From an uncultured Acidimicrobiia bacterium (GTDB taxonomy: Bacteria > Acidobacteriota > Vicinamibacteria > Vicinamibacterales > SCN-69-37), in the NCBI GenBank assembly GCA_966252305.1, contig CBINOO010000002.1, forward strand, positions 20,089 to 84,088: a stretch of DNA of 64,000 bases, given 5' to 3'. Shown piece after piece: positions 45,294-61,411 of this stretch (position 1 is its first letter; each line of letters begins with the position of its first letter). The notes under the pieces were generated by a model. The model made no database searches, had not been told where the DNA came from, and was given only the letters and a program-made list of their open reading frames with translations. Made by a program: the position numbers and the translations under genes.

Positions 45294-47936
45294 TCAGTCG
45301 CGCAGCGTCGAGACCGGGTTCACGCGTGCGGCGGCACGCGCCGGCAGCAGTGTGGCAAGCACGGCCACGGTGCCAAGCACGACGGGGCCGAGAATGAAGA
45401 GGATCGGCTCGAATCCGATGACGCCGAACAACATGTTCTGCATGCCGCGCGCCAGCAACGCGCCGAGTGTCAACCCGATGCCGATCCCGATGGCCGCCAT
45501 GCGGAGACCCTGACGCAGTGTGAGCGACAGCACCTGTCGCGCTGAGGCGCCGAGCGCCATGCGCACGCCGATTTCGTGACGCCGCTGAGACACGTAGTGC
45601 GCCATGACGCTGTAGATGCCGGCGCTCGCCAGGAACAACGAGATCACGCCGAATGCGGCCATGAACTGCGAGATGAATCGCAGTCCGGTCGTGCGCGTCC
45701 GGATGGCCGCATGCATCGTCTCGGTGTTGAAGACCGGCAGGTGGGGGTCGGTGGCCGAGACGGCTCCACGCAGCGCCTCAATGTGCGCGCCATCGCTGCC
45801 CGGGCCACGGGCGAGCAGATGGATCTCGGTGCTGGGGAATTGATCGACGGGCACGTAGATCGTCGGGGCGTTGCGCGATGAGAACCAGTCATCCAGCACG
45901 TTGCCGGAGACGCCGACGATGGTCAGCCATTGGTCTGCTGTTGGGCTCAGCTTGACCCGACGGCCAAGGGGCGACTCGTCGGGCCAGTACAGATTGGCGA
46001 GCGACTGGCTGACGATGGCCACCGGTTCCCGATCGTGCCGATCGTCCGCGGTGAATGCCCGTCCCTGAAGCATCGGAATGCGCAGGACGGCGTGGAAGGC
46101 AGGGGACACGGCGCGGTAGTTGATCCATCGGGGACCATCCGGCTCAGGCGCGCGCCCGTCCAGGACGAGCTGTCGTCGCTGGTTGCTCGACGTGGATGGC
46201 GCGACCGACGTGGTGGCGTACTCGGCGACGCCCGGCGCCGCTGCCGTTCGGGCCAGCAGGCGCGCCGTGAAATCACGCCGGGCGGCCAGGTCGGGATAAG
46301 CCCCTTCCGACAGGCTCATTCGCACGCGCACCAGGCCATCGGGCTCGTAGCCTTGTGGGCCGGAGGCCAGCCGGTGTGCCGCCATCGCGGCGAGGCCCGC
46401 GCACAGGAGCAGTGGCAATGCGAATGAAATCTCGGCGACCACCAGTGCGCGGCGCACGCGGTTGCGCCCCGCGCCGGATGTCTGGGATCGACCGCCGTCC
46501 TTGAGCGCCGACGTGAGGTTCGGACGTGAGGCCTTGAGCGCAGGCAGCAGGCTGAAGATGACGGCGCACACGATGGAGAACACCGCCGTCGCGAGAATGA
46601 CGCGCCCATTCACGTTCATCGAGGTCCAGCCTGGAACGAACCGCAGCAGCTCGGGCGGCATCACGGTTCGAGCGACGCCGATCGCCCCTTTGGCCACGAG
46701 CAGGGCCAGCGGCAGGGCGACCAGGGACAACACGACGCCTTCAACAAGCAGCTGCCTTACGAGTTTCCAGCGCGATGCTCCAATCGCCAGACGAACGGCC
46801 AGTTCGCGTTCGCGATCGGCACTGCGCGCCAGGAACAGGTTGATCACGTTGGTGCCAGCGATCAACATCAGCAGGAGTGCGGCCGCTTGCCACAGCCCCA
46901 ACACTCGCGGAAGGCCGTAATCGACCATCGCCGACCCAAACGGCAGGACGGTGAGGGAGTAGCGTCTGTTGTCGGCGTGTGCGTCCTTGAGCGGCGCGTA
47001 GGCGGCAGTCATTTCCGCCTGTGCCTGCGCGGTCGTCGTTCCTGGTGTGAGCTCGCCGACGACTGTCAGATACCGGCTTCGGCGATTCGCGCGATCGTCC
47101 GCGGAGAACGTCGCCGGCGTCCAGAGTTCGGAGCCGGTTGGAAAGCCGAATTCGGCCGGAGCTATGCCGATCACCGTATACGGTTCACCATCGAGCTGGA
47201 CCGCGCGGCCGATGATGTCGGCCGCCTGTCCGAAACGCCGGTGCCACAACGTCTCGCTGATGACGACGGTCTTTGCCGCGCCTTCGCGTTCATCGTCGCT
47301 GTTGAAAAAGCGTCCCTGGACGGGTTGTTGGCCCAGCATCGAAAAGAAGTCGGCGCCGACCTGCGAGCCCGAGAGGCGTTCAGGCTGGTCACCTCCGGAG
47401 AGATTGGCATCCCACCAGTTGATCGTGGTCATGCGACTGATTGCGCCACCGGCGCGTGCGCGCAGATCCCAGTAGTTGCCCGGGGCCACAGATTCCTGTG
47501 GAAACGGCTCCTCGGGCGAGAGCTCGGACACGACGACGAGGCGGTCGACGGTGGGGATCGTGAATGGCCGCAGCAGCAGGCCATCCACCATGCCGAAGGT
47601 GGCCGCGTTGAGGCCAAGGCCGACGGCGAGTGTGAGGATGATGGCGGCACTGACCGTGCGTTGTCGCAGCATTGTGCGAAGTGCCAGCCGGCAGTCGTTC
47701 AAGAGCGTGCGCATCAGGGAATCTCCGTGACCAACCGGACCGGCGGCGGTCGTTGACGATGAAGGCAGCGTCAGCCGCCAGGTTTCGAGCCAGTACCAGC
47801 GTGAAGCGGCCGCGCGGCCACGCCGGCGTGCCATGACCTCGAATTCCTCGCGCAAGTCGCCCAGCGTGACGTCCAGCCAGGGCTGATGCCTGAGGCGGCG
47901 CTTGAGGAGAGCGGTGGCGAGGCGAGGGGGTGTCAT
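45294..47936 (-). CDS. ADOP-type duplicated FtsX permease with N-terminal prefix domain
   Basis: 880 aa. Two FtsX modules ([26 protein letters not shown]). The start overlaps the PadR stop (TGATG). Confidence 0.9.
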
Positions 47937-48292
47937 CAGCGTTTCGGGGAGAGCAATGGAGCCAGCCCTGCGGCCATGGTCATCACTGCCGACTGGGCGT
48001 GTCGCACTGCCTTCAGGCCCAGTGGGGTGACGTCGTAGTAACGCCGCGCGCGACCGCCGCGCACGGCCAATGGCTCACCCATCGTTGACTGGACCAGGCC
48101 CTTGGCTTCGAGGCGGTCAAGCGAGGTGTGGACCGCGCCTCTCGCGACTGTGCGGCCTGTTTTGTCGATGAGCAGCTGGCGGATGGGCACGGTGTACGCC
48201 TCGACGTCTTCCTGGCGGCATTGCAGGATGGCCAGGAGCAGGAGGTGTTCAAATTCGCCGATGGGCGGCAGGGATTTCGACATGGCCGTCAT
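47936..48292 (-). CDS. PadR-family transcriptional regulator
   Basis: FEHLLLLAIL..YTVPIRQ..GAVHTSLDRLEAKGLV..RRYYDVTPLG is a winged-helix PadR pattern. Confidence 0.85.
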   Translation of the reverse strand: MTAMSKSLPPIGEFEHLLLLAILQCRQEDVEAYTVPIRQLLIDKTGRTVARGAVHTSLDRLEAKGLVQSTMGEPLAVRGGRARRYYDVTPLGLKAVRHAQSAVMTMAAGLAPLLSPKR

Positions 48293-48299
48293 TGTAGGC

Positions 48300-48305
48300 A
48301 AAATA
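48300..48305 (-). promoter_or_regulatory. -10-like TATTTT, 7 nt before ATG 48292 (PadR)
   Basis: Minus strand: cccgTATTTTgcctacaATG. Confidence 0.45.
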
Positions 48306-48362
48306 CGGGCCTGGGGGGATCCGGGTTCCCGCCCTCCCTCATTCCCTTGCGCGTTGTTGTGT

Positions 48363-48379
48363 TCTGACGTACTGTCAGA
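48363..48379. promoter_or_regulatory. Inverted repeat TCTGAC-N5-GTCAGA overlapping the putative -10 of the PadR gene at 48386 (candidate PadR operator)
   Basis: 6-bp perfect arms lying 7 nt upstream of the ATG. Confidence 0.45.
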
Positions 48380-48385
48380 CTGCCT

Positions 48386-48670
48386 ATGGTGTCCGACCTC
48401 GAAGCACTCATCCTCGACCTGCTGTCGGCCAACGCGCCGACGTATGGCCTTGACCTTGTCGCCGCCTCGAAAGGCCGTCTCAAACGGGGATCGGTCTACG
48501 TCACGCTCCAGCGCATGGAGCAGAAGGGGCTCGTCACCTCGCACCTCGACGAGCGCCCGGGGGAAGGTCCACCTCGTCGGCTCTACGAACCCACCGCCTA
48601 CGGCCTCCGGGCCCTTATCGCCGCTCGCATCATGGACGGCGACCTGCCCATGGGGGCGCATCTCAGGTGA
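48386..48670 (+). CDS. PadR-family transcriptional regulator
   Basis: LEALILDLLS..YGLDL..GSVYVTLQRMEQKGLV..RRLYEPTAYG. Confidence 0.85.
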   Translation: MVSDLEALILDLLSANAPTYGLDLVAASKGRLKRGSVYVTLQRMEQKGLVTSHLDERPGEGPPRRLYEPTAYGLRALIAARIMDGDLPMGAHLR

Positions 48671-51381
48671 CGAGGTGGCGAGGCTTGCCGGGCCGTAGCC
48701 TTGGCGAAGGCCGGTGCGAGATGAGTGTCTGGCGGCAAATCTGGGCTGATGTTGTCCATGAGTGGCAAGCCGCGCGTGGGCTCGGACGGTGCGCCGTCGT
48801 CATTGGCGCACTGCTGGCAGCGCTGCGAACCACTCTCGCGTTGTCTCCGAGGGGCCTGATGCCGATGCGAGACCTTGGCCGTGACGTGGCCCACGCCGGG
48901 CGACGCCTGAAAGCGTCGCCGATGTTCACACTCTTTGCGATTCTGACTCTCGCGCTGAGTATTGGGGCGACGACCGCCGTGTACTCGGTCGTTCACGCAG
49001 TGGCATTCAAGGCGCCGGCGATCGACGACGTGGAACGGGTCGTCAAGCTCTATCACGCGCCGGGGGGCGGTGCCTCCATCTCGGGCTTCTCGTGGCTGGA
49101 CTTCAACGACTTGAAGATCCGCCAACAGACGTTCAGCCATGTCGCGGCATGGTCTCGCTTCTCCAGCGCCATGGCGACACCGTCCGGCTCAAGGTCAGTC
49201 ACCGGGGAGATGGTGGACGGCGACTACTTTGCCACCGTCCGCGCCCTGCCGCTGCACGGACGGTTGCTGCAACCTGCTGACGACGATCCAGGCGCAGAGC
49301 CGGTGATCGTATTGGGCGCGGAGTTCTGGCAGTCGGCGTTCAACAGCGATCCTGCAGTGGTGGGCACGTCCGTCGCACTTGGCGGTGCGCCGTTTGTCGT
49401 CGTCGGGGTCGCTCATCCGGATGTGCGTGGCGTCGACATGCCCACGCTTGCTCCATCCGCGGCGTGGATTCCGATACAGCAGCGGACAAAGCTCGCCCGG
49501 CCCGGGGACCTCGCGTTCGGGAACGATGACGACCGCAACCGGCGCTGGGTGCGTGCGATTGCGCGCCTTCGTGAGAAAGAGACAGTTGAGAGCGCCGGGC
49601 TCGAATTGCGTGAAATGGGGGCCGCACTTGATGCGGCGGCGCCGATCGGGGCTGCGAACCCGTCCGCGCCAGACTCTCGTCGCGACTACAGCAACAGTCG
49701 GGGATGGTTTGCCCGTCGCTTCTCGGACGTGCGGATCCACGAGAGCATGGATCGCGTGGCGACGCCGGTGATCGCAACGCTGTTCGTCTCGGTCGGTCTG
49801 GTCCTGCTGGTGGCCTGCACGAATCTGGCGAACCTCCTGCTGGCGAGAGGCGCGGCGCGTCGCCATGAGATGTCGGTGCGCCGAGCGCTCGGAGCATCGC
49901 GTGCGCGAGTGATTCGGGAACAGCTGGTGGAGTGTGCCGTGCTGGCTGTGGCCGGCGGAGGCGCCGGTGTTCTCGTCGCCAGGTGGCTGCTGGTCATGTT
50001 GTCGACAGACTTCAGCGTGGGCGACAACCCGGGCATCGTGATCAGCGTGCGACCCGAGTTGAATCCGGCAGCCTTGCTGGTGGCGTCGGCCGCCACGGCA
50101 TTGGCCATGGCCGTCTGCGGCCTGGTGCCGGCGTGGCACTCCACCGGTGGCGACGTCAGAGCCGCCATCGCACGTGATGGCGGCGGTGCCCTGCCGCGCT
50201 GGCGAGGGCGCCGCTTCCTGATTGGCGCACAAGTCGCGGTGTCTGTGGCCCTGCTGGCCCTCACGGCCGTCAGTGCCGGCAATGCGTGGCGGATGGCACG
50301 CGCTGACACCGGCATTGCCCTCGACCAGCTGTCGCTGGTCACGGTGGACCCGAGCGCATCGAGGCTGTCGACCGGCGACGCCATTGCCCTCTTTGACCGC
50401 GCCGCCTCCCGCGCTCGCCAGACGCCAGGCGTCTCAGCCGTCGCCATCGCCACGGGCCTGCCCGTCGGCACAGGGTCCACCAATCTGGCTCTGCGCACAG
50501 CTGATCAACCGCAACCAGGCTCATGGGTGCGCGCGGTCGAAGCCGGTGCCGGTTATCTGACGACCGCCGGCTGGCCTGTGCTGCACGGCCGTGATCTGAC
50601 CGTGGATGACCAGGGGGGAACGGCGATTCTGATCAGCGCGGGTGCGGCCAGGCGTGTGTTCGGGCGTGTCGACGTAGTCGGCCGCGCGCTCACGTATCGC
50701 CGCCAGGCATATCTCGGCGAACCCGACCCCGTCGACGCCACGGCCACCATCGTCGGTGTCGTGTCTGACGTCAGTGACCCCGGCAGGCGATTCGGCGACG
50801 AGGGCTTCGCCGTGCTGGCGCTTGGTCCACAGACGTCAAATCGTCGGCTGACTCTGATCGCGAAGACATCGATGCCGGTCGACACCGTGGCCGCCCTCCG
50901 AGCGGCCGTCTCTGACGTCGATGCGCGCCTGGCGGTCACGCAGGTCGCGACCGGCGCCTCGCTCATCGATGGGATGACGATGTTGTTGCGGGTTGTGGGG
51001 AGCACGGCAGGAGTCCTTGGTGGTTTCGCCTTGTTGCTGGCATTGGTGGGGCTCTACGGCGTGTTGTCGTTCGTCGTCGCCCGTCGGCGCCGGGAGATCG
51101 GTGTGCGGATGGCGCTGGGGGCGGAACGGTCCACCGTGCACCGGATGGTGTTGCGCGACGGCCTTCAGCCGGTGGGCTGGGGTCTGCTGATTGGCAGCCT
51201 TGTGGCAGCGCCGGTGCTGCTGAGTCCGCTGGGACGTTCCATGCTGCGCCTGGATGCGGGTGGCCTGACGTGGGCAGTGCTGGCTCCGCTCACGATGTAC
51301 GTCCTGTCGGTTGTCGCCATCTGGATTCCCGCCCGCCGCGCGTCCACCGTCAATCCGACCATCGCGCTCCGGGACCACTGA
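48667..51381 (+). CDS. ADOP-type duplicated FtsX permease
   Basis: GTGA overlap with the PadR gene. 904 aa. Two FtsX modules ([26 protein letters not shown]). Confidence 0.9.
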   Translation: MTRWRGLPGRSLGEGRCEMSVWRQIWADVVHEWQAARGLGRCAVVIGALLAALRTTLALSPRGLMPMRDLGRDVAHAGRRLKASPMFTLFAILTLALSIGATTAVYSVVHAVAFKAPAIDDVERVVKLYHAPGGGASISGFSWLDFNDLKIRQQTFSHVAAWSRFSSAMATPSGSRSVTGEMVDGDYFATVRALPLHGRLLQPADDDPGAEPVIVLGAEFWQSAFNSDPAVVGTSVALGGAPFVVVGVAHPDVRGVDMPTLAPSAAWIPIQQRTKLARPGDLAFGNDDDRNRRWVRAIARLREKETVESAGLELREMGAALDAAAPIGAANPSAPDSRRDYSNSRGWFARRFSDVRIHESMDRVATPVIATLFVSVGLVLLVACTNLANLLLARGAARRHEMSVRRALGASRARVIREQLVECAVLAVAGGGAGVLVARWLLVMLSTDFSVGDNPGIVISVRPELNPAALLVASAATALAMAVCGLVPAWHSTGGDVRAAIARDGGGALPRWRGRRFLIGAQVAVSVALLALTAVSAGNAWRMARADTGIALDQLSLVTVDPSASRLSTGDAIALFDRAASRARQTPGVSAVAIATGLPVGTGSTNLALRTADQPQPGSWVRAVEAGAGYLTTAGWPVLHGRDLTVDDQGGTAILISAGAARRVFGRVDVVGRALTYRRQAYLGEPDPVDATATIVGVVSDVSDPGRRFGDEGFAVLALGPQTSNRRLTLIAKTSMPVDTVAALRAAVSDVDARLAVTQVATGASLIDGMTMLLRVVGSTAGVLGGFALLLALVGLYGVLSFVVARRRREIGVRMALGAERSTVHRMVLRDGLQPVGWGLLIGSLVAAPVLLSPLGRSMLRLDAGGLTWAVLAPLTMYVLSVVAIWIPARRASTVNPTIALRDH

Positions 51382-51390
51382 CGTCCACCG

Positions 51391-51438
51391 GCCACCCGCC
51401 GCCACCTGCCGCCACCTGCCCCGCCTGCCGCCACTTGC
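51391..51438. repeat. Tandem decamer array (GCCACCYGCC-like, about 5 units) immediately upstream of the OsmC -10 box
   Basis: Units: gccacccgcc gccacctgcc gccacctgcc ccgcctgcc gccacttgc. Confidence 0.8.
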
Positions 51439-51439
51439 T

Positions 51440-51445
51440 TACAAT
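51440..51445 (+). promoter_or_regulatory. -10 TACAAT, 6 nt before ATG 51452 (OsmC)
   Basis: gctTACAATctctccATG, with TGCCCC 17 bp upstream. Confidence 0.6.
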
Positions 51446-51451
51446 CTCTCC

Positions 51452-51853
51452 ATGGCCGTTCCCTCTCTTTCGCTCCAGTGGCACAGTGAGTTCAATCTTT
51501 CAGCCCCAGAAGGCTTCCCGCCGATCACGCTCGACAGCGGCAAGCCCGACATTCCGTCCCCGATGCAGGCGGTGGCCTACGGCCTCATGGGGTGCATGGC
51601 CATGGACATCGTCCTCATCCTGCAGAAAGGGCGTCATGACCTGCGGGGTCTGACCGCACACTTCGACGGCGAACGCGCTGAGACCCATCCAAAGCGCTAC
51701 GTGAAGATGCACCTTCGATTCGAGATCACGGGCAACGTGCCGGAGGACGCCGTCAAACGCGCGATCGAGCTTTCGCACAGCACGTATTGCTCCGTGTCGA
51801 ACTCCCTGCGTCAGGACATCGACTTCACCACGTCGTTTACGATTACCGCCTAA
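51452..51853 (+). CDS. OsmC/Ohr-family peroxiredoxin-like protein
   Basis: GLMGCMAMDIV and SHSTYCSVSNSL provide the two conserved Cys. Internal ATG 51452 of ORF 51311..51853. Confidence 0.8.
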   Translation: MAVPSLSLQWHSEFNLSAPEGFPPITLDSGKPDIPSPMQAVAYGLMGCMAMDIVLILQKGRHDLRGLTAHFDGERAETHPKRYVKMHLRFEITGNVPEDAVKRAIELSHSTYCSVSNSLRQDIDFTTSFTITA

Positions 51854-51923
51854 CTCCGGGACTCCGGCACCTCGGAACCCCGGCACCTCGGCACCTCGGA
51901 ACTTCGGAACTTCGGAACCTCGC
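51852..51923. repeat. Tandem octamer array (NACYYCGG, 9 units, 72 bp) filling the OsmC to DUF1624 gene gap
   Basis: Units: aactccgg gactccgg cacctcgg aaccccgg cacctcgg cacctcgg aacttcgg aacttcgg aacctcgc. Confidence 0.85.
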
Positions 51924-51924
51924 C

Positions 51925-52977
51925 TTGCGCCGCAGATACGTCGACTGGCTTCGTGGCGTTGCCGTGCTGATCATGATTGAGTGGCACGCGGTTGACGCAT
52001 GGACGGCGACGGCTGAGCGTGACCGTGATCTGTTCTGGTGGCTCGGTTTCATCGGCGGCTGGGCCGCGCCATTGTTCCTGTTCCTGGCCGGGCTGGCGTT
52101 GCCACTGGCGGCCGCCGCGCAACGTCAGCGGGGCCGATCGGCCGACGAGGCCGGGCAGGGGCTGCAGCGACGCGGTTGGCAGATCTTCGTGTACGCACAT
52201 GTGTTTCGGTTGCAGTCCTATCTGCTCAACCCGAACGCCGTGTGGCACGGCGTGCTCACGCCCGACATCCTGAACATCCTCGGCCTGGGCATCGTGCTCG
52301 TTGCGTCATGTCTTCGGTGGGCGCGCACCGGCGTGGCGCGTGCAGCTGCTCTCGGGGGACTGCTGCTGACCGTGCTGATCCTCACACCCTACAGCCGGCT
52401 CTGGCAGTGGCCGGATGTCCTGCATCCTCGACTCGAGGCCTACATTCGTCCCAATGGCGGCTTCGGGCAGTTCTCCCTGTTTCCCTGGCTGACGTATCTC
52501 ATCGCGGGTGGCCTCGTAGGTCTCTGGATGGCGCGCGAACGAGCCGAGACGGAGGAATCGCACTTTCATGCGCAGCTCGCGCTCGCCGGCCTGCTGTGTA
52601 TGGCTGCCGGCTGGTTTGGCGCCTACCTGCCCGCCATCCTTCCCACCAGCGGCGGCACCTCCTGGTCGTTCCTGATCGGCCGCATTGGCACGATGATGCT
52701 CATGCTGGTGGTGGCCTGGCTGTGGATGACCCGGCCAACCGCCTCCCGCTGGAGTCCGATGGTCGTGTTCGGCCAGACGTCATTGTTCGTGTACTGGGTG
52801 CACGTCGAGTTGGCGTACGGTCTGCTCAGTGTCACCATTCACCGGTCGTTCACCATCGCGGAGTCGCTGATCGCTTATGGCGCCTTTACGCTCTTCATGC
52901 TTGGCCTTGCCGTCTGGTGGCAGCGGCGGAGCACCCAACCATGGATCCCCGCTCACCTGAAAGCTCAGGGCGCGTGA
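51925..52977 (+). CDS. DUF1624 / HGSNAT-like membrane acyltransferase family protein
   Basis: RRRYVDWLRGVAVLIMIEWHAVDAW is the typical N-terminal motif. About 9 TM helices. Start assumed at TTG 51925; TTG 51787 inside the OsmC gene is the only in-frame alternative. Confidence 0.75.
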   Translation: MRRRYVDWLRGVAVLIMIEWHAVDAWTATAERDRDLFWWLGFIGGWAAPLFLFLAGLALPLAAAAQRQRGRSADEAGQGLQRRGWQIFVYAHVFRLQSYLLNPNAVWHGVLTPDILNILGLGIVLVASCLRWARTGVARAAALGGLLLTVLILTPYSRLWQWPDVLHPRLEAYIRPNGGFGQFSLFPWLTYLIAGGLVGLWMARERAETEESHFHAQLALAGLLCMAAGWFGAYLPAILPTSGGTSWSFLIGRIGTMMLMLVVAWLWMTRPTASRWSPMVVFGQTSLFVYWVHVELAYGLLSVTIHRSFTIAESLIAYGAFTLFMLGLAVWWQRRSTQPWIPAHLKAQGA

Positions 52978-54710
52978 GCCGCCGGCGCGCGCCGCTGGTC
53001 TTGGGCGCGGTGATGTCGCTGGCCCTTGGCGCGCAGGACGGCTGGCGACCCGTGGCGTTGACGATGCCGCAGCCGCAAGGGTCGTCGGTATTGGCCGGTT
53101 GTGTCGCCGATACCGACACGCCCGCATTTCGTGTCGGCGCCGGCGGAATGCCCGCGGTGGAAGCCATGTGCGGCCGGCAGACGCTCGTCCGCTGCAATGT
53201 CCCCGGCCTGGAGCCGCTCGACGTTGACCTCGATCAGCTTTGTCGTGGACGAGATTACCGCCTCGTGTCCACCGAACGGTCTGTGGTCCCAAGCTGGGCG
53301 CTTCGCGTGCCGGCCACGATCGAGTGGCGCGGCTGGCGCGACGGCGTGTCCTACCTGATCGCCACCAGGCGCGTGGATGCGCAGTCGGTGGAGCCGTGGC
53401 CGCTCTCCGCGGAACTTCGGCTGCTCAGGGTGGTCCGGCCCGATTCATCGCCGGTCACGTTCGTGATTCCTCACGCTGATGGGGAGGCCGTTGACGTCAC
53501 TGTGGCCGTACCCCCAGCGCAACCTGGAGGCGAGTTGCTGATTGCGCTCGCCGACAACGAGCGGCAGGTGCCGACGCTGGTCGTGCGCGGACAGGAAACT
53601 CGCGTGGTGGGCATCAACGGCGCGCCGGTCGTGGCGGTGTCCGGCCTTCCGGCCGGAGACTACGAGGTCACCCTTGGATCCCTTGACGTCGCGCTCAGCG
53701 CGCCCACAGCCGTTCGTGTCATCGAGGGCGACACGGTGGAGATGTCCTCGCGCCTGCCGGTGGTGGCCGGCGAATATCGCATCAGCGGAACCGTGACGCT
53801 CAACGGTGAACCGCTCCGCCGGCGCACGTTGTGGCTGTCCCACCTGTCCACGGATGCGGTGCGCTCGGTGACAACCGACGATCGCGGTCGGTACGCGGTC
53901 ACGGTCGATCGCGAGGGCCGGTATGTCGTTCGTGCCCACGAGGAGGATCTCGGCTACGCGTCGAAGGACACAGTCGTCCAACTCGGGGACAACGTTGTTG
54001 ATCTCGATCTCACCGGCGGAGATCTGGATGTCGCGTTTTCGATGCAGGGATCGCCTGCGCAGGACGGTGCTCGCGTGACGTTCACGCTTGACGGCCCCAT
54101 CCGGTTCTCGGCGGCGGTCGATCCCGCGACGCCGCTGCAATTGACGATGCTGCCCGTCGGCACGTACACCATCGCGGCGTCAACCGCGCCGGACCTTGTC
54201 GCAGACACGGCCATTGTCACCATCGATGCCACGGGGCAGACGCGGCGCCTGTTGCTCGACCTGCGTCCACAGGGCGCATCCCTGCGTATCGTGGACACAC
54301 CGGGTGTGCGCGCCCGTGCCGGACGGAGCATCCTTCGATCGCCGGCCAATGACGGCACGTTTGACGTGCGACAGGTCTCGCCGGGCACCGAAATCATCGG
54401 ACGCGCGCCGGGGCGCGTGCCGGGCTGTGTCAAACTCGCGCCTGGAGTCGCGCACGTCCTCGCGCTCGGCACGGAGACCGCTGCGATCACCTTCCACTTC
54501 GCCGGCGCGTCAACAATGCGCGTGCCCTCCGGCCGCGTCCGGCTCTCGGTCGTGGACCAGTGCACCGTTCCGCTCGAAGAGTTCGAATGGAGGCGGGTGC
54601 CCGACGGTTTCGAGATCCTCAATTTCCCGCGTGGCGTGCCGGTCGTGTATGAACTCCAGGGCCTGACGATGGAGGTCGTCGCTCCGTCTGGTCCCGTGGT
54701 GGTGAAGTGA
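52974..54710 (+). CDS. Secreted multi-beta-sandwich protein, paralog A (no family recognised)
   Basis: GTGA overlap with the upstream gene. Signal peptide RRRAPLVLGAVMSLALGA. CarboxypepD_reg-like strands (GDYEVTLG, GEYRISGTVTLNGEPL, DDRGRYAV, GTYTIAAS). The C-terminal module is shared with the next two genes. Confidence 0.75.
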   Translation: MSRRRAPLVLGAVMSLALGAQDGWRPVALTMPQPQGSSVLAGCVADTDTPAFRVGAGGMPAVEAMCGRQTLVRCNVPGLEPLDVDLDQLCRGRDYRLVSTERSVVPSWALRVPATIEWRGWRDGVSYLIATRRVDAQSVEPWPLSAELRLLRVVRPDSSPVTFVIPHADGEAVDVTVAVPPAQPGGELLIALADNERQVPTLVVRGQETRVVGINGAPVVAVSGLPAGDYEVTLGSLDVALSAPTAVRVIEGDTVEMSSRLPVVAGEYRISGTVTLNGEPLRRRTLWLSHLSTDAVRSVTTDDRGRYAVTVDREGRYVVRAHEEDLGYASKDTVVQLGDNVVDLDLTGGDLDVAFSMQGSPAQDGARVTFTLDGPIRFSAAVDPATPLQLTMLPVGTYTIAASTAPDLVADTAIVTIDATGQTRRLLLDLRPQGASLRIVDTPGVRARAGRSILRSPANDGTFDVRQVSPGTEIIGRAPGRVPGCVKLAPGVAHVLALGTETAAITFHFAGASTMRVPSGRVRLSVVDQCTVPLEEFEWRRVPDGFEILNFPRGVPVVYELQGLTMEVVAPSGPVVVK

Positions 54711-56392
54711 TGGTGTCGCCTCTGCTGGTGTCCACCGTGCTCGCGGCCACGACATGGTTTGCCACGGGAACAGTGGTTGTCGACATCGAAGAAAGCGCGG
54801 TGCAACCCGTGTCGATTCGCCTCGCTGGCCCCGCAGCGGGCGAGTGGCCGCTCGAGGGGCGATCCCGTGTCGTGTTGGCCGGCCTCGCTCCGGGCGAGTA
54901 TTCGGTGACGCCGGTGTTTGCCGGCAAGACCACGCCGTTCAACCCGAAGGTGGAGGTCCGCGCCGCGACGATACAGTCCCTGCGCGTGCCAACGGCGGCG
55001 TACGGTGGCGTGCGGCTTGATGCCGACGCCGGCATGTGTGAGTCGGACGATCCGTGGCAACTCGTGTCCGTGACGATGACGGTCGCGATGCCGGGCGGGC
55101 GGACGCGGAGCCAGCACATGACCAACGTGCAGGCGGCCACTCACACGTGTGTGCGTGAGCTTGGCGGGCTCCTGCCGGGCAGGTATCAGTTCAAGGTCAC
55201 GCCGCCCGCAGCTCGCATGCCGGCGTTCACCATCGCTTTCACTGTGGCCGCCGGAAAGTGGACGGAGGAGCGGCTGGCAGCGCCGCCCGTTGTGGTGCGC
55301 GGACAGGTGACGTATGCCGGCGAGCCGTTGTCAGGAGTGACCGTTGGCTTCGTGCCGGAGGGAGTTCCCACGCCGCCTGCGAGGCCGGCCGAACTGGAGA
55401 CGTGGTTGACCTCGTCCATGGGCGCCTTTTTCGTCAACCGGACAGACGAAGGCGGTCGCTTTGCACTGGCCGTCGTCCGGTCCGGAACCCATGTGCCGCA
55501 GGCCTCGAACGTGTTGGGCCCCCTCGATGTCCAGCATCCAGCCACCGCGATCGACCTTGCTGCCGGCATCAACGAAGTGGACATCCGCCTTGGTGGCGCC
55601 CGCCTCAGCGTCGAACTTCGACGATCCGACCGGAACAACACACAGCCGATTGCAGCTGCAGTCGTCGTGCACCATATCCGCGGTGCGTCGAGAACCCTGG
55701 CCGTCAACGACGTCAACCAGGCCACGACGATCGATGCGTTGCCACTCGGGATGTACTCCGTCACTGCCAGTGGTACCACCGCCGACGGGCAGGGGAACCC
55801 CGTCACTCTCGTTGCGTCCCGGGTGCAAAACGTCACGGTCGCAGAGGCCGGCGCATCAGTGGTGCTCGAACTGGTTGAACGCGCAGCCATACTTGAAGTC
55901 CTTGATGCGGTGGGAAGCCCGCTGGACGGCGCGTCGATTGTGCCAAGGCCGGCCACAGAGACGATCAAGACCGACGCCGCAGGCCGCGCGGCCATTGACC
56001 GCCTGGCGGTTGGCACGGAGGTCACGATCCGGAGCCGCACCTGGGACACCACCTGTCACGTCGTGAGCGACCAGCCGCTCCAACGCGTCGTGATTCCCGC
56101 GGCGACTGCGGAGGTGCTCCTTACTTGGCCCGTTGAGCCTGAGCGTGCATCGTCTGTTGTCCTTCCGCCGGGCGCGACAGCCGCGCGAGCCAAGGGACCT
56201 TTCGCAGGCGCACGGATTTCCGGTCTGCTCGGGGCCGGCTGCGTTATTCCGCTGTCCTCGATGTCGGTGGCCACGGTTCGTGTGCCCCGGCCCGGACTGA
56301 TGATCAACCTGCCGCCGGGCGCGTACACGATCACGCTGGCCGATGGCCGCGAGTTCGCATTCACGGCGCCCGGGCGTCTTGAGGTGAAGTGA
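54707..56392 (+). CDS. Secreted multi-beta-sandwich protein, paralog B
   Basis: GTGATG overlap. Hydrophobic N-terminus. GEYSVTP, GRYQFKV, TDEGGRFAL. C-terminal module GTEVTIRSRTWDTTCHVV..GAGCVIPL..LPPGAYTITL..APGRLEVK. Confidence 0.75.
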   Translation: MMVSPLLVSTVLAATTWFATGTVVVDIEESAVQPVSIRLAGPAAGEWPLEGRSRVVLAGLAPGEYSVTPVFAGKTTPFNPKVEVRAATIQSLRVPTAAYGGVRLDADAGMCESDDPWQLVSVTMTVAMPGGRTRSQHMTNVQAATHTCVRELGGLLPGRYQFKVTPPAARMPAFTIAFTVAAGKWTEERLAAPPVVVRGQVTYAGEPLSGVTVGFVPEGVPTPPARPAELETWLTSSMGAFFVNRTDEGGRFALAVVRSGTHVPQASNVLGPLDVQHPATAIDLAAGINEVDIRLGGARLSVELRRSDRNNTQPIAAAVVVHHIRGASRTLAVNDVNQATTIDALPLGMYSVTASGTTADGQGNPVTLVASRVQNVTVAEAGASVVLELVERAAILEVLDAVGSPLDGASIVPRPATETIKTDAAGRAAIDRLAVGTEVTIRSRTWDTTCHVVSDQPLQRVVIPAATAEVLLTWPVEPERASSVVLPPGATAARAKGPFAGARISGLLGAGCVIPLSSMSVATVRVPRPGLMINLPPGAYTITLADGREFAFTAPGRLEVK

Positions 56393-57261
56393 TCCGGCTG
56401 CTGGTCGTGCTGGTGATGGCTGCGGGCCTGCAGGCGCCGGCGACCGGCACCGTCCGCCTGTCGTTCGGCGAAAACGGCAGGGTTGGGACCACCGCCCTGA
56501 TGGGCTCGATCTACTTCGAAGTGCTGGGCGGCGGAGTGCGGGAGTTTCCGGTTCGTGATTTCAGTCGACCGATTGAAATCCCCCGGCTGGCACCTGGAAC
56601 GTACCGGTTCTCCGTCGTCGCACAGACAACCACTCGGGCGCTGGTGTCGGCGGAAGTCGCGGTCGGAACCATTCGGAGCGCGGGAGACGTCGTCGATCTC
56701 ACCATCAACCTCATCGAACGTAAAGGCACCATTCGTGTGATCAACAGCCTCGGTGTACCGGTGGCCGGCGCGCACTTCTACACACGACCGCCGGCGGTGA
56801 GCAGCAGCGCCGACGAATCGGGACGTATTCCACTCGCGCTGCTTGCCGCAGGCACCGAGCTCACGGTCCGCACGATCGACTGGGGCATGACCTGTCACCT
56901 CGTGACGGCCAACGCGCAGCAGACCATCGTTGTGCCTGATGCTGTCGAAGAGCTCGTCATCGCCACGCCGATCGTTCCGCCTGATGCCCTGCTGCGTCGG
57001 CGCCACATCGTCTCGTCTCCGCTGCTGGCCGGAGCATCGATCGCGGGAATTCCCGGCGCTGACTGCGCAGTTCCCCTTGCACACTTTCCGGTGACGCTGG
57101 CGAACCACAACGGCCACACCGAACACACGGTGCTGCTCCCGTTTGGTGAGTACACGCTCCGGATGCCGACTGGTCGCGTGATTCCCGTATCGGCGCCTGG
57201 GCGAGTCGACGTCACCACCGGGCTCCCCCCTTTACCGGTTGTGGCCGAACCCGATCGGTAG
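56389..57261 (+). CDS. Secreted beta-sandwich protein, paralog C
   Basis: GTGA overlap. Signal peptide MIRLLVVLVMAAGLQA. GTYRFSV. C-terminal module GTELTVRTIDWGMTCHLV..GADCAVPL..LPFGEYTLRM..APGRVDV. Confidence 0.75.
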   Translation: MIRLLVVLVMAAGLQAPATGTVRLSFGENGRVGTTALMGSIYFEVLGGGVREFPVRDFSRPIEIPRLAPGTYRFSVVAQTTTRALVSAEVAVGTIRSAGDVVDLTINLIERKGTIRVINSLGVPVAGAHFYTRPPAVSSSADESGRIPLALLAAGTELTVRTIDWGMTCHLVTANAQQTIVVPDAVEELVIATPIVPPDALLRRRHIVSSPLLAGASIAGIPGADCAVPLAHFPVTLANHNGHTEHTVLLPFGEYTLRMPTGRVIPVSAPGRVDVTTGLPPLPVVAEPDR

Positions 57262-57276
57262 AATGCTCGGCCTTCC

Positions 57277-58266
57277 ATGTTGGCCATCGTGCAATCCGGG
57301 TTTGGTGATCCACACAAAGTACTGGCGCTGACTGAGATCGATCAACCCGAGTCGTCAGACAATGACGTCATCGTTCAGGTCCAGGCCGTCGGCATCGCCA
57401 AGGGTACGTGGTTGATGACGATGGGACTGCCGTACATTGCGCGGCCGATGTATGGGTTCCGGACGCCCAAGCAGCGCGTTGCCGGCCTGCAGTTTGCAGG
57501 AATTGTTGCGGCGGTTGGCGCTGCCGTCACCACCGTTTCTGTGGGTGACACGGTGTTCGGGTTGCACGGTGGCACGCTCGCCGAGTACATCACCACGCCG
57601 GCGGCGATGGTGGTCCCCGTCCCGCTCAATATCAGCGTCGAACAAGCGTCGGTGACTCCCGTCTCGGGCATCACAGCCCTGCAGGCCGTTCGTGACGCAG
57701 GCCAGGTTCGCCCGGGCCAGCGTGTGCTCGTCCTTGGAGCGTCAGGAGGCGTCGGGTCATTTGTCGTGCAGATCGCGAAAGCGTCCGGCGCAGACGTCTC
57801 GGCCGTCGCCAGCGCCCGGAATGCTGCCCTGCTCAGGGAGATCGGCGCGGATCAGACGATCGACTACACCGCCGCGGATCCGCTTGCGGGCAGTCCTGGC
57901 TACGACGTCATCATCGATATCGCCGGCAACCGGCCTGTCTCGCGCATGCGCGCGGCGCTGGGCGCATCCGGCACGCTGGTCATCGTCGGTGGCACCGGCG
58001 GGAGAACCACGATGGGGTTTGGCCGAACGGTTGGCGGCATCATCGTGGGGAAGTTCGTGCGTCACCGGATCGTTGGACTCATCTCCGATCCGTCACCCAG
58101 GGACCTGGCCGCCCTGGCGGCGCTGATGGCCAGCGGGCGGGTCGTGCCTGTGGTGCACCCGGCGCCGTATCCCATGGCACGGGCGGCTGACGCCTTCGAT
58201 GCCGTTTGGACCGGACGTGGTGCCGGGACGCCGGTGGTCACACTCGGGGGCATCGCCCAGGTGTGA
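57277..58266 (+). CDS. Medium-chain dehydrogenase/reductase, NADPH:quinone oxidoreductase-like
   Basis: GDTVFG.., VLVLGASGGVGSFVVQIAK nucleotide-binding motif, about 329 aa. Confidence 0.85.
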   Translation: MLAIVQSGFGDPHKVLALTEIDQPESSDNDVIVQVQAVGIAKGTWLMTMGLPYIARPMYGFRTPKQRVAGLQFAGIVAAVGAAVTTVSVGDTVFGLHGGTLAEYITTPAAMVVPVPLNISVEQASVTPVSGITALQAVRDAGQVRPGQRVLVLGASGGVGSFVVQIAKASGADVSAVASARNAALLREIGADQTIDYTAADPLAGSPGYDVIIDIAGNRPVSRMRAALGASGTLVIVGGTGGRTTMGFGRTVGGIIVGKFVRHRIVGLISDPSPRDLAALAALMASGRVVPVVHPAPYPMARAADAFDAVWTGRGAGTPVVTLGGIAQV

Positions 58267-58267
58267 G

Positions 58268-58306
58268 AAAGAAAAAAGCCGGGCACTGCATGTCGCAGTG
58301 CCCGGC
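58268..58306 (-). terminator. Intrinsic terminator of the M14 gene
   Basis: 12-bp perfect GC-rich stem GCCGGGCACTGC / GCAGTGCCCGGC with a 5-nt loop. On the minus strand it is followed by TTTTTTCTTT. Confidence 0.8.
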
Positions 58307-58330
58307 CGTGTGAGTGCCGATCGTGTCGGT

Positions 58331-61300
58331 TTACTTGTCGTTCCAGTTCACGATCGAGTTGAACACCATGTTGAACTCGCCGTGGTTCTGCCATCGGTAG
58401 ATCGGGTTGTTCGCGAACAGGATGACGCGGCCCTTGCCGTTGTAGGCGTTGGGGACGTCAATCGCGATTGGGCGTCCGGCCAGGGTGTCGGCGCCGGTCA
58501 TCAAACCCGAGATCACTGCCGCATCGCCGCCCTTGTAGCGCGCGAGCACGTTGCCCTGCTCGGCCAGGCCGGTGCGCAGGAACGGGCCGTTGACGTACTT
58601 CACGGCGAACTCGGGCTTGCCGTAGCCGTAGAAGACCGGGTGTTCCGGCTTCGAGATCTCGGCTTCGACCAGCGGGCGTTGAGCGGAGATCCCTGATACC
58701 TGGTCGGTGTCGACCGTGCGGGTGAACCCGAACTCAATCGGGAAGCGGACGGCGTTGTGCGCCGCGATCAGGGTGCCGCCCGCCTCGAGGAACGCGGCGA
58801 ACGCATCCACACCGGCCTGTCCGAAGCCGCCCGTGACGTTGTCGCTCTCTCCATACATGCCGAGGAACTGGAACTTGTCCGTCTTCTTGTAGGGCACGGC
58901 GCGCGCGGCGGGCTCCTGCATCACCGACTGCCTGTTGATGCCCTGATACGCCATGACAATCACGTCATAGTCGTTCTTCAGGTTGCCCTGCATCACGCGC
59001 TCCTTGTAGATCAGGTCGAACGGGATGCCGAACTGATCAAACGCGTGACGATACCAGCCCAGTTCCTGCGTGCCGCTCCACTGCGAGTAGATCGCCACCC
59101 GGGGCACGTCCGCGTCGTGCGTTTCGACCGTCGGCACCGACGCCAGCGCCGCCGCCGTCAAGCCGTACTTCTCGACCGCTGCACGCGCGCCCGCGATGTT
59201 GGTGGTGACGATGAAGGAGCCGGCGGGGAATTCAATCCCACCCGCGGTGAAGCTCTTGCGCGCGACTTTCATCGGCGTGTCCTTCATTGCGAAGCGGAAC
59301 GAGATCATGTTGTTCGAGCCGAAGTGGGCGACGGCCAGCGCCGCCGATCCGGATCCGGAGAGGCTGGCGCCGTGGGTGGACTGCTTGACCAGCGTCATCG
59401 GCACTTCCAGGATCTGGGCGTCCGCAATCTCCACGACATTGACACCCATCGCCGGTCCCATCGTCCAGCCCGAGTCGTCGTAGGTGGAGAGTCGCTCGTC
59501 GGGGTAGTCCTGCTTTTCGAGCAGGTTCTTGGCGAGGCTCCAGTACGGCTGGCCGGCCTTTACGACGTAGGAGCCCGCCGGGTACTTCTGATCGCCCAGC
59601 GTGAACTCGCTCTTGGCCTGATGTACTTCAATGCCCTGAATCGCGAAGATGCGGAGCATCTCGGCGACGCGCGTCATGTCGCGCTGCACGGGGATGACGT
59701 ACGCGTGCGGCGGTTCTTCGAGGCCGCGCTGAATCGAGTTGCGCGTCTTGATGTAGAAGTTCTCGAGGACGAGATTCGGCACCATCGAGGTGAACTGCAG
59801 CGACGAGAGCACACCCGTCTGCATGTAGTTCGTGTTGTTGCGTCGCGAAAAGTTCGCGACGGCATCCGGCGGCACCGGCAGGCCGCGGTACCATTCGCGC
59901 GGCTGGCTGCCACCGGCGCCCGTGGGCACGCCCCCGGCGCGACCGCCGCCTCCGCCGCCGGCACGGCCCGCACCGGCGCGACCGCCCGCGGCGGCCCCGC
60001 CTGCGCGACCTTGTGGGGCGCCCGCGCGTCCACCGGCGCCTTCACCCGCCTGCGCGTCACCGCCGCGGCCACCACGGGCACCCGCGGCCTGACCCCGCCC
60101 ACCTGCGCCACCTTCGCGCCCCGCCGCGGCGTTTGCTTCACGCTGCGCACGGTTGTCGTTGCCCGACTGGGTCTCGTACATCTTCATCATGCCGTTGTGG
60201 TTGTAGGCGATCGAGCCGAGGTAACCCGGCGACCACCCATCCATGAAGGCGTGGGTATACACGCCCGGCATGCCGTACTTCGTCATCTGCGAGAGTTCGT
60301 AGTCGGCCCACAGGCGGAGATCGGCAAAGAGGATCGGATCCAGGTTCGGGTTCTGGGGCGGACCACCGCTGTAGGTGTAGAGCAGGGTCAACGATTCATG
60401 CAGGTCGTGCATGATGGGCGGGTACGCGGTGAAGTACCAGTCGCCCAGTGCGCGCATCTGCACCTGCGAGAGATTAATGTCGCGGTTGTTGTCGTGGTAG
60501 ACGTATTTGCCCCAGTACGGAATGGCGGCGCCGCCGCCGCGCCCGCCACCACCGCCGCCGGCGCCTGCGGCACCAGCTCCACGGCCGCCAGCGCCCGTGG
60601 CCGCGGCCTGCAGGTCACGGGTCTGGAACGTCCAGTCGAGGTTGCGGTCGCGTCCGTCCGCGTCGGCCACCGGTGTCACCGACACGATGACGTTGTCTCG
60701 AATCTGGTTGATGGTCGGCGACGTCTCGACCGCAAGGCGGTAGACCAGCTCCATCAGCATCTCGGGGGGGCCCAGCTCGCCTGAGTGGAGGCCGCCCATG
60801 AGGTGGTAGTGCGGCTTCGTGTTGCTGATGAGCCTGCGCACCTCGGCGTCGTTCAGGCCGCGGGGGTCGGCCAGCCGCTTGAGGTTGTCGCGGTTCTGCT
60901 GGAGGTTCTTGATGTTGGCATCCGAGGACACCCACACCACCACCAGTTCGCGGCCTTCATCAGACCGGCCGATGGTCTCGACCCGCACCCGGGGGGTGGC
61001 CGCCGCCAGCGCCCGGTAGTACTTCAGGATGTCGGCGTAATAGGTCAGTTTTTCGGGGGCCCCGATGTAGTACCCCAGGACGTCCTTCGGGGTGGGGATG
61101 CCCGGGGCAAGGGGGAGATGGTCGACCAGGGGGGACCCATACATCGGGTCGCCGGTCCACTCCTTGTAGAGTTTCGCGAATTCTTCGTCCTGTGCCTGCT
61201 TGGGATCCCGGGTATCGGTGACCCACTGCTGGGCCGGCAAGGTCGCTACGGTCAGGGAGAAGACGGCGACGCCCAGGGCGCAGACGCCCAGGACGGTGCG

Positions 61301-61336
61301 GATCCGTCGAGAGACTCCAGCGACGTTCATTGTCAT
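58331..61336 (-). CDS. M14-family zinc carboxypeptidase-like protein (about 1000 aa) with Gly/Arg/Ala low-complexity insertions
   Basis: AGGAG precedes ATG 61336. Signal/anchor VLGVCALGVAVFSL. HYHLMGGLHSGELG contains the HxxE zinc motif. Two G/R/A-rich tracts. The rest of ORF 58331..61963 (upstream of 61336) was rejected. Confidence 0.8.
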   Translation of the reverse strand: MTMNVAGVSRRIRTVLGVCALGVAVFSLTVATLPAQQWVTDTRDPKQAQDEEFAKLYKEWTGDPMYGSPLVDHLPLAPGIPTPKDVLGYYIGAPEKLTYYADILKYYRALAAATPRVRVETIGRSDEGRELVVVWVSSDANIKNLQQNRDNLKRLADPRGLNDAEVRRLISNTKPHYHLMGGLHSGELGPPEMLMELVYRLAVETSPTINQIRDNVIVSVTPVADADGRDRNLDWTFQTRDLQAAATGAGGRGAGAAGAGGGGGGRGGGAAIPYWGKYVYHDNNRDINLSQVQMRALGDWYFTAYPPIMHDLHESLTLLYTYSGGPPQNPNLDPILFADLRLWADYELSQMTKYGMPGVYTHAFMDGWSPGYLGSIAYNHNGMMKMYETQSGNDNRAQREANAAAGREGGAGGRGQAAGARGGRGGDAQAGEGAGGRAGAPQGRAGGAAAGGRAGAGRAGGGGGGRAGGVPTGAGGSQPREWYRGLPVPPDAVANFSRRNNTNYMQTGVLSSLQFTSMVPNLVLENFYIKTRNSIQRGLEEPPHAYVIPVQRDMTRVAEMLRIFAIQGIEVHQAKSEFTLGDQKYPAGSYVVKAGQPYWSLAKNLLEKQDYPDERLSTYDDSGWTMGPAMGVNVVEIADAQILEVPMTLVKQSTHGASLSGSGSAALAVAHFGSNNMISFRFAMKDTPMKVARKSFTAGGIEFPAGSFIVTTNIAGARAAVEKYGLTAAALASVPTVETHDADVPRVAIYSQWSGTQELGWYRHAFDQFGIPFDLIYKERVMQGNLKNDYDVIVMAYQGINRQSVMQEPAARAVPYKKTDKFQFLGMYGESDNVTGGFGQAGVDAFAAFLEAGGTLIAAHNAVRFPIEFGFTRTVDTDQVSGISAQRPLVEAEISKPEHPVFYGYGKPEFAVKYVNGPFLRTGLAEQGNVLARYKGGDAAVISGLMTGADTLAGRPIAIDVPNAYNGKGRVILFANNPIYRWQNHGEFNMVFNSIVNWNDK

Positions 61337-61396: not shown

Positions 61397-61402
61397 TACA
61401 AT
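61397..61402 (+). promoter_or_regulatory. -10 TACAAT, 9 nt before ATG 61412 (DGQHR gene), with -35-like CCGACA at a 17-bp spacing
   Basis: CCGACAgcctaccacgatgcgcTACAATcccggttccATG. Confidence 0.55.
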
Positions 61403-61411
61403 CCCGGTTCC

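Follow-up and report, generated by a model that had tools for sequence, protein, structure and literature searches.

Transmembrane acyltransferases of the TmAT superfamily bind acyl-CoA through a DxxR motif in helix 1, FxxxxG in helix 2, an Arg in helix 3 and (S)xxxY in helix 9, as defined in a structural survey of 2025 (PMC12423673). The bacterial AT3 enzymes have been reviewed under three architectures, namely AT3-only, AT3-SGNH and AT3-alanine racemase, and it is the SGNH domain that performs the final acyl transfer (PMC9558356). In OafB the AT3 domain (residues 1-338) is followed by an 11th helix (339-376) and then by the periplasmic domain (PMC9833829). The NRF-AT3 and beta-HGSNAT-TM architectures are eukaryotic. 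The extracytosolic domain of HGSNAT has been described as likely helping to bind long-chain heparan sulfate (PMC11199644), and the NagX proteins, bacterial PF07786 members of 309-395 residues, have been proposed to acetylate periplasmic glucosamine (PMC9007349). Open questions for the AT3/TmAT enzymes are how the membrane domain finds and presents its acceptor outside the cytoplasm, and whether partners are needed where an SGNH domain is lacking (PMC9558356). Here we describe a locus of four genes, located at 51925-57261 of a 64,000-nucleotide stretch (the window) of contig CBINOO010000002.1 from an uncultured soil-type bacterium, which encodes a putative membrane acyltransferase (G1) and three predicted exported proteins (A, B and C). 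A TmAT enzyme whose beta-sandwich arm is C-terminal and in some cases detached and duplicated, as found in this locus and its relatives, is an undescribed arrangement that is limited to one clade of uncultured Acidobacteriota-like bacteria. Related loci and proteins are referred to by our own numbers, prefixed L and P.

51925-52977, + strand: G1, putative membrane acyltransferase, 350 residues, TTG start
51943-51987, + strand: DxxRx10H motif DWLRGVAVLIMIEWH in the first membrane helix of G1, signature of an AT3-type acyl-CoA site and catalytic His
52075-52092, + strand: FLFLAG (FxxxxG, F51-G56) of G1, acyl-CoA-site motif
52780-52794, + strand: SLFVY (SxxxY, S286-Y290) of G1, acyl-CoA-site motif
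52974-54710, + strand: A, predicted exported protein, 578 residues
52974-53039, + strand: signal-peptide-like segment VSRRRAPLVLGAVMSLALGAQD of A, matching the 11th helix of fused proteins
54707-56392, + strand: B, predicted exported paralog, 561 residues
56389-57261, + strand: C, predicted exported paralog, 290 residues

A preliminary description of the locus, made from the sequence alone, had named G1 as a membrane acyltransferase of the DUF1624/HGSNAT type, and this was confirmed. G1 scores well above the cut-offs of two Pfam families, HGSNAT_cat, the former DUF1624 (1.7e-15, 57.6 bits, cut-off 22), and Acyl_transf_3 (2.1e-13, 50.4 bits, cut-off 31, residues 4-330), which places it by profile in the TmAT superfamily (Pfam clan CL0316; PF01757/PF07786). 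Hydropathy and charge distribution indicate about ten hydrophobic segments and positively charged termini; both termini are probably cytoplasmic, the C-terminus on account of its positive charge. The 10-helix core of the superfamily is seen both in the hydropathy of G1 and in a moderate-confidence AlphaFold model (pLDDT 70) of a protein, P0034, in which the orthologs of G1 and A are fused. This model was matched by Foldseek to the human HGSNAT structures 8vlg, 8vkj, 8vly and 8jkv with a probability of 1.00 over about 420 aligned columns, at a TM-score on the target of 0.38-0.45. The first motif consists of D7-W-L-R10, then GVAVLIMIEW, and then H21, in agreement with the DxxRx10H signature of the AT3 family. 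All three motifs are invariant or nearly so among 18 G1 orthologs, and a conserved R83-G-W-Q is the likely helix-3 Arg, as assigned by position and not by structural alignment; with these, G1 has the acyl-CoA-site residues of the superfamily. Judged by motif register rather than by a structure-based alignment, His21 occupies the position of the helix-1 Asn of HGSNAT, and residues 22-91 contain no His that could correspond to the loop His of HGSNAT and NagX. Orthology to NagX was considered and rejected, since this loop His is missing and no nag genes are located nearby. Nothing in NCBIfam scored above its cut-off and no model there names G1, and sequence searches of the PDB with G1, A, a profile of the fused proteins and a B/C profile gave no significant match. 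Taken by its sequence, G1 is a bona fide and probably active transmembrane acyltransferase of an unnamed TmAT subfamily.

G1 is linked to its downstream neighbours by gene fusion, more strongly than the sequence alone could show. G1 and A form a single open reading frame (ORF) of 916-931 residues in L006, L011, L013 and L015, and of about 840 residues in L012, while the split state of the window is also found in L001 and L017. A protein search with the L006 fusion as query gave 17 clusters of fused proteins (P0024-P0040) with 58-85% identity to it, and as these were drawn from independent JGI, ENA, NCBI and Logan assemblies the fusion is not an assembly artefact. The VSRRRAPLVLGAVMSLALGAQD segment of A aligns with ...MRAPxVxLLL...Q.QWRPV of the fused proteins, in the model of which a helix is predicted at 344-360, after the 10-helix core and before an all-beta part. 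Together with this OafB-like layout of helix and periplasmic part, the fusion argues strongly for a joint action of G1 and A.

The three downstream proteins are homologous to each other, and the following domains and residues were identified in them.

53781-53993, + strand: CarboxypepD_reg match in A, residues 270-340 (Pfam, 1.8e-11, 44.7 bits)
54006-54707, + strand: copy of the shared three-domain unit in A, with Cys485 (54426-54428) and Cys530 (54561-54563)
55592-56389, + strand: shared unit in B, residues 296-561, with Cys450-His451 and Cys512
55898-56026, + strand: CarboxypepD_reg match in B, residues 398-440 (Pfam, 33.2 bits against a cut-off of 32.3)
56446-56715, + strand: domain D1 of C, residues 20-109, beta-sandwich
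56728-56970, + strand: domain D2 of C, residues 114-194, beta-sandwich
56893-56898, + strand: Cys169-His170 of C, from the TCH of the two-Cys unit
57031-57213, + strand: domain D3 of C, residues 215-275, beta-sandwich
57064-57066, + strand: Cys226 of C, the second conserved Cys

The motifs of A, B and C quoted in the preliminary description are all present, and the paralogy deduced there is borne out by BLASTP (B to C, E 4e-28 with 31% identity over about 275 residues, C corresponding to the C-terminal half of B; A to B, 2e-6; A to C, 3e-5) and by profile-profile comparison with hhalign, in which the C family aligned with the last 234 residues of the A family over 228 columns (probability 97.5%, E 2.3e-11) with both cysteines in register. 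The shared C-terminal unit is larger than was first thought, extending over about 230-260 residues instead of about 150, and consists of three beta-sandwich domains with two Cys. In A it is preceded by the N-terminal hydrophobic segment, a four-Cys domain of about 160 residues and beta-sandwich repeats; everything after the four-Cys domain is of all-beta make-up in the model of the fused ortholog. The N-terminal half of B is composed of additional beta-sandwich repeats, and orthologs of B were found at 78% and 58% identity. C, the most conserved of the three, has a signal peptide and the shared unit only.

The earlier statement that these proteins belong to no recognisable family had to be revised. 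Both A and B pass the gathering score of CarboxypepD_reg (PF13620), the match in B coinciding with the middle domain of the shared unit. C has no Pfam match; its AlphaFold2 model (pLDDT 85.5, pTM 0.79) is all-beta with three tandem transthyretin/CnaB-like sandwiches, and a CarboxypepD_reg-like fold was recognised in it by Foldseek. The Foldseek matches, at 8-14% identity, include the Bacillus TIE protein, Gram-positive pilins, FimD domains and the regulatory domain of carboxypeptidase D. What is matched is a generic structural domain, beyond which the module resembles no characterised family, and by its sequence the two-Cys D2-D3 unit is an uncharacterised family of its own. A pilin or adhesin identity, as the top Foldseek matches might have it, was rejected because the likeness is at the level of the fold only and the C-terminal LPXTG of Gram-positive sortase-pilins and CnaB adhesins is absent from all three proteins. 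Sequence inspection of A, B and C revealed neither a lipobox nor an LPXTG motif, their C-terminal ends being ...SGPVVVK, ...PGRLEVK and ...VVAEPDR, respectively. Their N-terminal hydrophobic segments fit the export signals described before, by a hydropathy heuristic only, and we infer that the three proteins are periplasmic.

Conservation around the cysteines differs between the families. The His of the TCH motif is invariant in the B and C families, and within the C family H232, H246, TCH and the second Cys are all invariant. The A family has PxC[VLIA] without this His, and in distant members the residue after the Cys varies (R, H, I, V or Y). Apart from some Gly and Pro residues, nothing but the two Cys is invariant across A, B, C and the distant families, which, with the TCH His limited to B and C, suggests that the two Cys form a structural disulfide and are not an active site.

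The gene overlaps, their shared sequence context and the product sizes were as first described. The G1/A junction at 52974 (cagggcgcGTGAGC) and the B/C junction at 56389 (gaggtgaaGTGATC) are GTGA overlaps, and the A/B junction at 54707 (gtggtgaaGTGATG) is a GTGATG overlap. GGTGAAGTGAT is common to the A/B and B/C junctions because A and B are paralogous and both end in ...V-K-stop. In relatives, too, the genes repeatedly overlap or abut closely at their junctions. Homologs of G1 support its TTG start at 51925, as they start 2-4 residues ahead of the same RRxYIDWLRG motif; for B, an ATG at 54710, as used by the database protein P0001 (560 residues), is an equally possible start. Relative to the orthologs in L001, the nearest relative (68-86% amino-acid identity), the ratio of nonsynonymous to synonymous substitution rates (dN/dS) is 0.19 for G1, 0.18 for A, 0.16 for B and 0.10 for C. 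All four are under purifying selection and are real genes.

Members of the B family occur in two other clusters and those of the C family in 20 clusters. In GTDB, with one genome per species, C was found in 8 of 185,579 species, all represented by uncultured metagenome-assembled genomes (MAGs) titled Vicinamibacterales, 'Solibacteraceae' or 'Acidimicrobiia'. The gene content of the C-bearing loci, with ADOP permeases and TonB receptors with a CarboxypepD_reg N-terminus, fits Acidobacteriota. MAGs that share one syntenic block (L010-L017) carry the public labels Acidimicrobiia, Solibacteraceae and Vicinamibacterales, and therefore at least some of these labels are wrong. Variants of the G1-A-B-C order recur across the clade, and the combination of a DUF1624-type gene with the paralogs is conserved outside this genome: L008 has G1-B-C, L016 has a decayed A, and C is present at every locus that reaches its position and carries an A or B paralog. 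In L017 an extra partial C-type unit (12989-13448; 54% identity over residues 163-275) is found about 4 kb downstream of the main cluster, which suggests that duplication of the C-type module is ongoing.

An exhaustive search of a library of 1.84 billion representative proteins with the B/C profile gave only 10 close relatives (E <= 1e-30), and generic multi-repeat beta-sandwich proteins ranked below these. Distant proteins that keep the D1-D3 unit and both Cys include A-like ones of 590-677 residues, and an unfused A homolog (P0147) was matched with an E-value of 2.6e-6. A divergent B-like protein (P0042) was found on a short contig. Scanning of metagenomes with the G1 alignment identified 25 loci, five of which carry A and/or C (L022, L023, L026, L027 and L030). 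In a neighbour-joining tree of G1 domains all A/B/C-bearing loci form one clade, from which we conclude that the A/B/C set is an add-on acquired once, in that clade. Within it the split forms (the window, L001 and L017) are sister to the fused forms and L008, a topology that cannot show whether the fused or the split state is ancestral.

Between the four genes and their surroundings the line had been drawn too narrowly, since an OsmC-like gene constantly accompanies G1.

51452-51853, + strand: OsmC-like gene, 133 residues (Pfam OsmC, 1.7e-18), with both OsmC-type Cys
51865-51922, no strand: 8-bp tandem repeat CGGAACCT, 7.2 copies (Tandem Repeats Finder score 74)

The OsmC-like protein, which contains GCMAMD and YCSVSNSL, is encoded directly upstream of G1 in every locus with upstream sequence. 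It has this place in 24 of the 25 metagenome loci and in every genome locus with G1, and several loci have no more than a short distance between the two genes, if any (a 2-nt gap in L008, an overlap of 4 nt in L035). As this also holds for lineages without A/B/C, the older and more widely conserved unit is OsmC-G1, and A/B/C were inserted between G1 and the gene for an M14 peptidase. No functional link of OsmC to AT3- or HGSNAT-type enzymes was found in the cited literature.

We tentatively propose, rating this at slightly below an even chance, that A, B and C are a clade-specific periplasmic accessory, for acceptor binding or as a scaffold, to an older OsmC-TmAT pair. In a membrane-spanning pore, G1 would bind acyl-CoA from the cytoplasm, acetyl-CoA being the most likely donor, and would pass the acyl group on to a periplasmic acceptor. 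A would be the periplasmic arm of G1; in most sister lineages it is the C-terminal part of one polypeptide with G1, joined via the 11th helix; in the window genome this helix would have become A's own signal peptide or signal anchor, the two frames being joined by GTGA. B and C would have arisen by duplication of the beta-sandwich array of A, with the disulfide-type three-domain unit retained; they would be periplasmic, and the overlapping stop and start codons would couple their synthesis to that of A. The arrays would be non-catalytic, and would bind or position a polymeric envelope or periplasmic glycan acceptor, or act as a scaffold reaching away from the inner membrane, a role like that proposed for the beta-sandwich luminal domain of HGSNAT and unlike that of the catalytic SGNH domain of OafA and OatA. 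Of the elements of this proposal, the anatomy of the genes, their paralogy and selection, the fold, the motifs, the fusion and the phylogenetic distribution are shown by the data, and what we infer is the acyl donor, the topology, the Cys-Cys disulfide and a binding or scaffold role without catalysis.

Several findings weigh against the accessory proposal, and many of them would fit as well if A, B and C were autonomous periplasmic or surface beta-sandwich proteins, inserted by chance after G1 and with no role in acyl transfer, the fusion being a mere membrane anchor; we consider this possible, albeit rather unlikely. Homologous two-Cys-unit proteins exist without any acyltransferase (L009, L018, L019, L020 and one JGI contig). 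L009, from one species, has A-C without G1, and no acyltransferase is located near four distant two-Cys-unit proteins that were checked in their contigs, so that the module, at first taken to be part of an acyltransferase system, also occurs in four contexts without one. G1 for its part stands alone in sister lineages, as a protein of 352-362 residues without A/B/C by tblastn, at at least seven loci with enough downstream sequence (L028, L029, L032, L035, L037, L039 and L041); absence of A/B/C was confirmed by hidden Markov model (HMM) search at five of these loci, those with the G1 ORF among the sequences scanned. What follows G1 varies, and can be an ankyrin-repeat protein, an extracytoplasmic function (ECF) sigma/anti-sigma pair or nothing before the convergent M14 peptidase gene. 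The acyltransferase and the two-Cys unit thus co-occur, often fused, within one clade and not wherever either is found, and as synteny spans the whole block in this clade, little weight can be given to gene order alone in the case of B and C. Furthermore, the model of the fused protein is of moderate confidence only (pLDDT 70, pTM 0.39), and no acceptor, glycan-synthesis or export genes are present among the neighbours of the locus. However, at least 17 clusters have kept the fused ORF despite divergence to 58% identity, and this would be hard to account for if the two parts had no function in common. In addition, the tether geometry is that of known two-domain AT3 enzymes, and the overlapping junctions are kept where the genes are split. 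The link between acyltransferase and secreted proteins drawn in the preliminary description is upheld by the single ORF in five related species-level loci and 17 clusters, but not as a general rule, as the paralogs are dispensable and stand-alone G1 orthologs exist.

The remaining explanations concern the activity of the proteins. G1 could be a transporter, as proposed for the related TfMurT of Tannerella, with A, B and C as periplasmic substrate-capture proteins; the NagX family is distantly related to that putative N-acetylmuramate transporter (PMC9007349), and the TonB-dependent receptor and peptidase genes nearby suggest nutrient uptake, but DxxR, FxxxxG, SxxxY and the AT3-type His of the acyl-CoA site are all conserved in G1, and we regard a transporter as unlikely. 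More improbable still is that the two-Cys units of A, B and C form a heteromeric stalk on the acyltransferase, long enough to cross the periplasm, given the six or seven beta-sandwich domains of A, and serving trans-envelope acylation of an acceptor in or close to the outer membrane, with the constantly adjacent OsmC-like thiol peroxidase as the tie to oxidative or organic-peroxide stress; if true, this would be an acylation machine without a described counterpart. The least probable possibility, for which we see very little chance, is that B and C are a catalytic relay, the counterpart of the SGNH domain, on which the acyl group would be held by a Cys-His dyad (W-G-x-T-C-H) and then passed to the final acceptor. 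The invariance of TCH across B and C, and of the second Cys, H232 and H246 in the C family, would agree with such a relay, and a stand-alone AT3 enzyme can hand its acyl group to a separate periplasmic protein, as WecH does to PatB (PMC9558356). Yet two invariant Cys in an exported protein are more simply read as a disulfide, and the plain beta-sandwich fold matches no hydrolase or transferase. As the main model the relay was rejected because the His is absent from the A family and variable in distant members.

The surroundings of the locus, with a G+C content of 65% across the whole window, comprise genes for PadR, ADOP permeases, OsmC, a Zn-dehydrogenase, M14 and M19 peptidases, a TonB receptor and DndB.

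45294-47936 and 62549-63976, - strand: further permease genes of the MacB_PCD/FtsX type
48386-48670, + strand: PadR regulator gene, with a 4-nt GTGA overlap with the next permease gene
48667-51381, + strand: MacB_PCD/FtsX 'orphan' permease gene, duplicated
57277-58266, + strand: Zn-dependent dehydrogenase/quinone-oxidoreductase-like gene, 15 nt after C
58277-58307: strong hairpin terminator of the M14 gene
58331-61330, - strand: convergent M14 carboxypeptidase-like gene, about 1000 residues, with two long Gly/Ala/Arg-rich low-complexity inserts
61400-62542, + strand: DndB-like gene (Pfam DndB, 6.8e-15)

The Zn-dehydrogenase-like gene is found only in the closest relatives (L001-L005) and is absent from the other loci, and is therefore considered to lie outside the conserved set. 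With the M14 gene the locus has the same conserved boundary on its downstream side in all relatives, and in all of them this gene is adjoined by the DndB-like gene; the stretches examined contained no further dnd genes. A scan of 48000-58600 for sigma-70 promoters and terminators gave sites no more numerous than in shuffled controls. Its sole sigma-70-like promoter match is at 48277-48304, just upstream of PadR, and it revealed no promoter-like site between the OsmC gene and C. The CGGAACCT repeat fills the spacer between OsmC and G1 and stops 2 nt short of the G1 start codon, and the same repeat is present at the same place in L001 as a longer run. If the number of copies varies, a repeat so close to the start of an envelope-modifying gene could change its expression. 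The spacers of other relatives contain a conserved TAGAAT box about 8-10 nt upstream of the G1 start (L006, about 5778-5788; L011, about 3765-3775; L015, about 5180-5190; L017, about 3480-3490), which could be a -10 element with a very short or absent leader, or an A-run/hairpin/T-run terminator-like element (L012, L013 and L016). Because of such elements, G1 may start its own transcript in these lineages.

The significance of the arrangement is limited by its narrow distribution (8 of 185,579 GTDB species representatives, all uncultured) and by the known folds of its parts. The clade is nevertheless a natural experiment, in which the same enzyme occurs alone, fused to an arm, or split with one or two extra arm paralogs, and which would offer a direct test of what a non-catalytic domain in the periplasm contributes. 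A full-text literature search found no paper that mentions both CarboxypepD_reg and an acyltransferase.

Compared with described systems, the exported proteins resemble CarboxypepD_reg/transthyretin-like and CnaB proteins in the Pfam matches of A and B and the Foldseek matches of C and of the fused model, but at the level of the fold only, with 8-16% identity and low global TM-scores. NagX is similar to G1 in being a stand-alone membrane protein of the PF07786 family and of similar size, with a proposed transmembrane acetyl transfer from acetyl-CoA; unlike G1, it is encoded in operons for chitin/GlcNAc utilisation and has retained the loop His of the HGSNAT type. Human HGSNAT is the best structural match to the membrane domain, with HGSNAT_cat above its cut-off, and it also has an extra helix that joins the membrane domain to an extracytosolic beta-sandwich domain, although HGSNAT has only one such domain, located at the N-terminus. 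The first core helix of HGSNAT carries Asn286, and the loop after it the catalytic dyad His297-Asp307 (PMC11199644), whereas in G1 the position of the Asn is taken by a His and the loop contains none. With the AT3-SGNH enzymes (OafA/OafB, OatA, PglI) the locus shares the 10-helix acyl-CoA-binding domain with DxxRx10H, FxxxxG and SxxxY, and, in the fused orthologs, the 11th helix that puts the C-terminal domain in the periplasm. In contrast to these enzymes, the periplasmic part of G1-A is a beta-sandwich array and not an SGNH esterase/transferase: it has no Ser-His-Asp triad, and no SGNH or Lipase_GDSL match was found in Pfam at E <= 1. It also differs from them in that the arm is here a separate gene, followed by two more paralogs, and a C-terminal beta-sandwich architecture is thereby added to the three reviewed for bacterial AT3 enzymes (PMC9558356).

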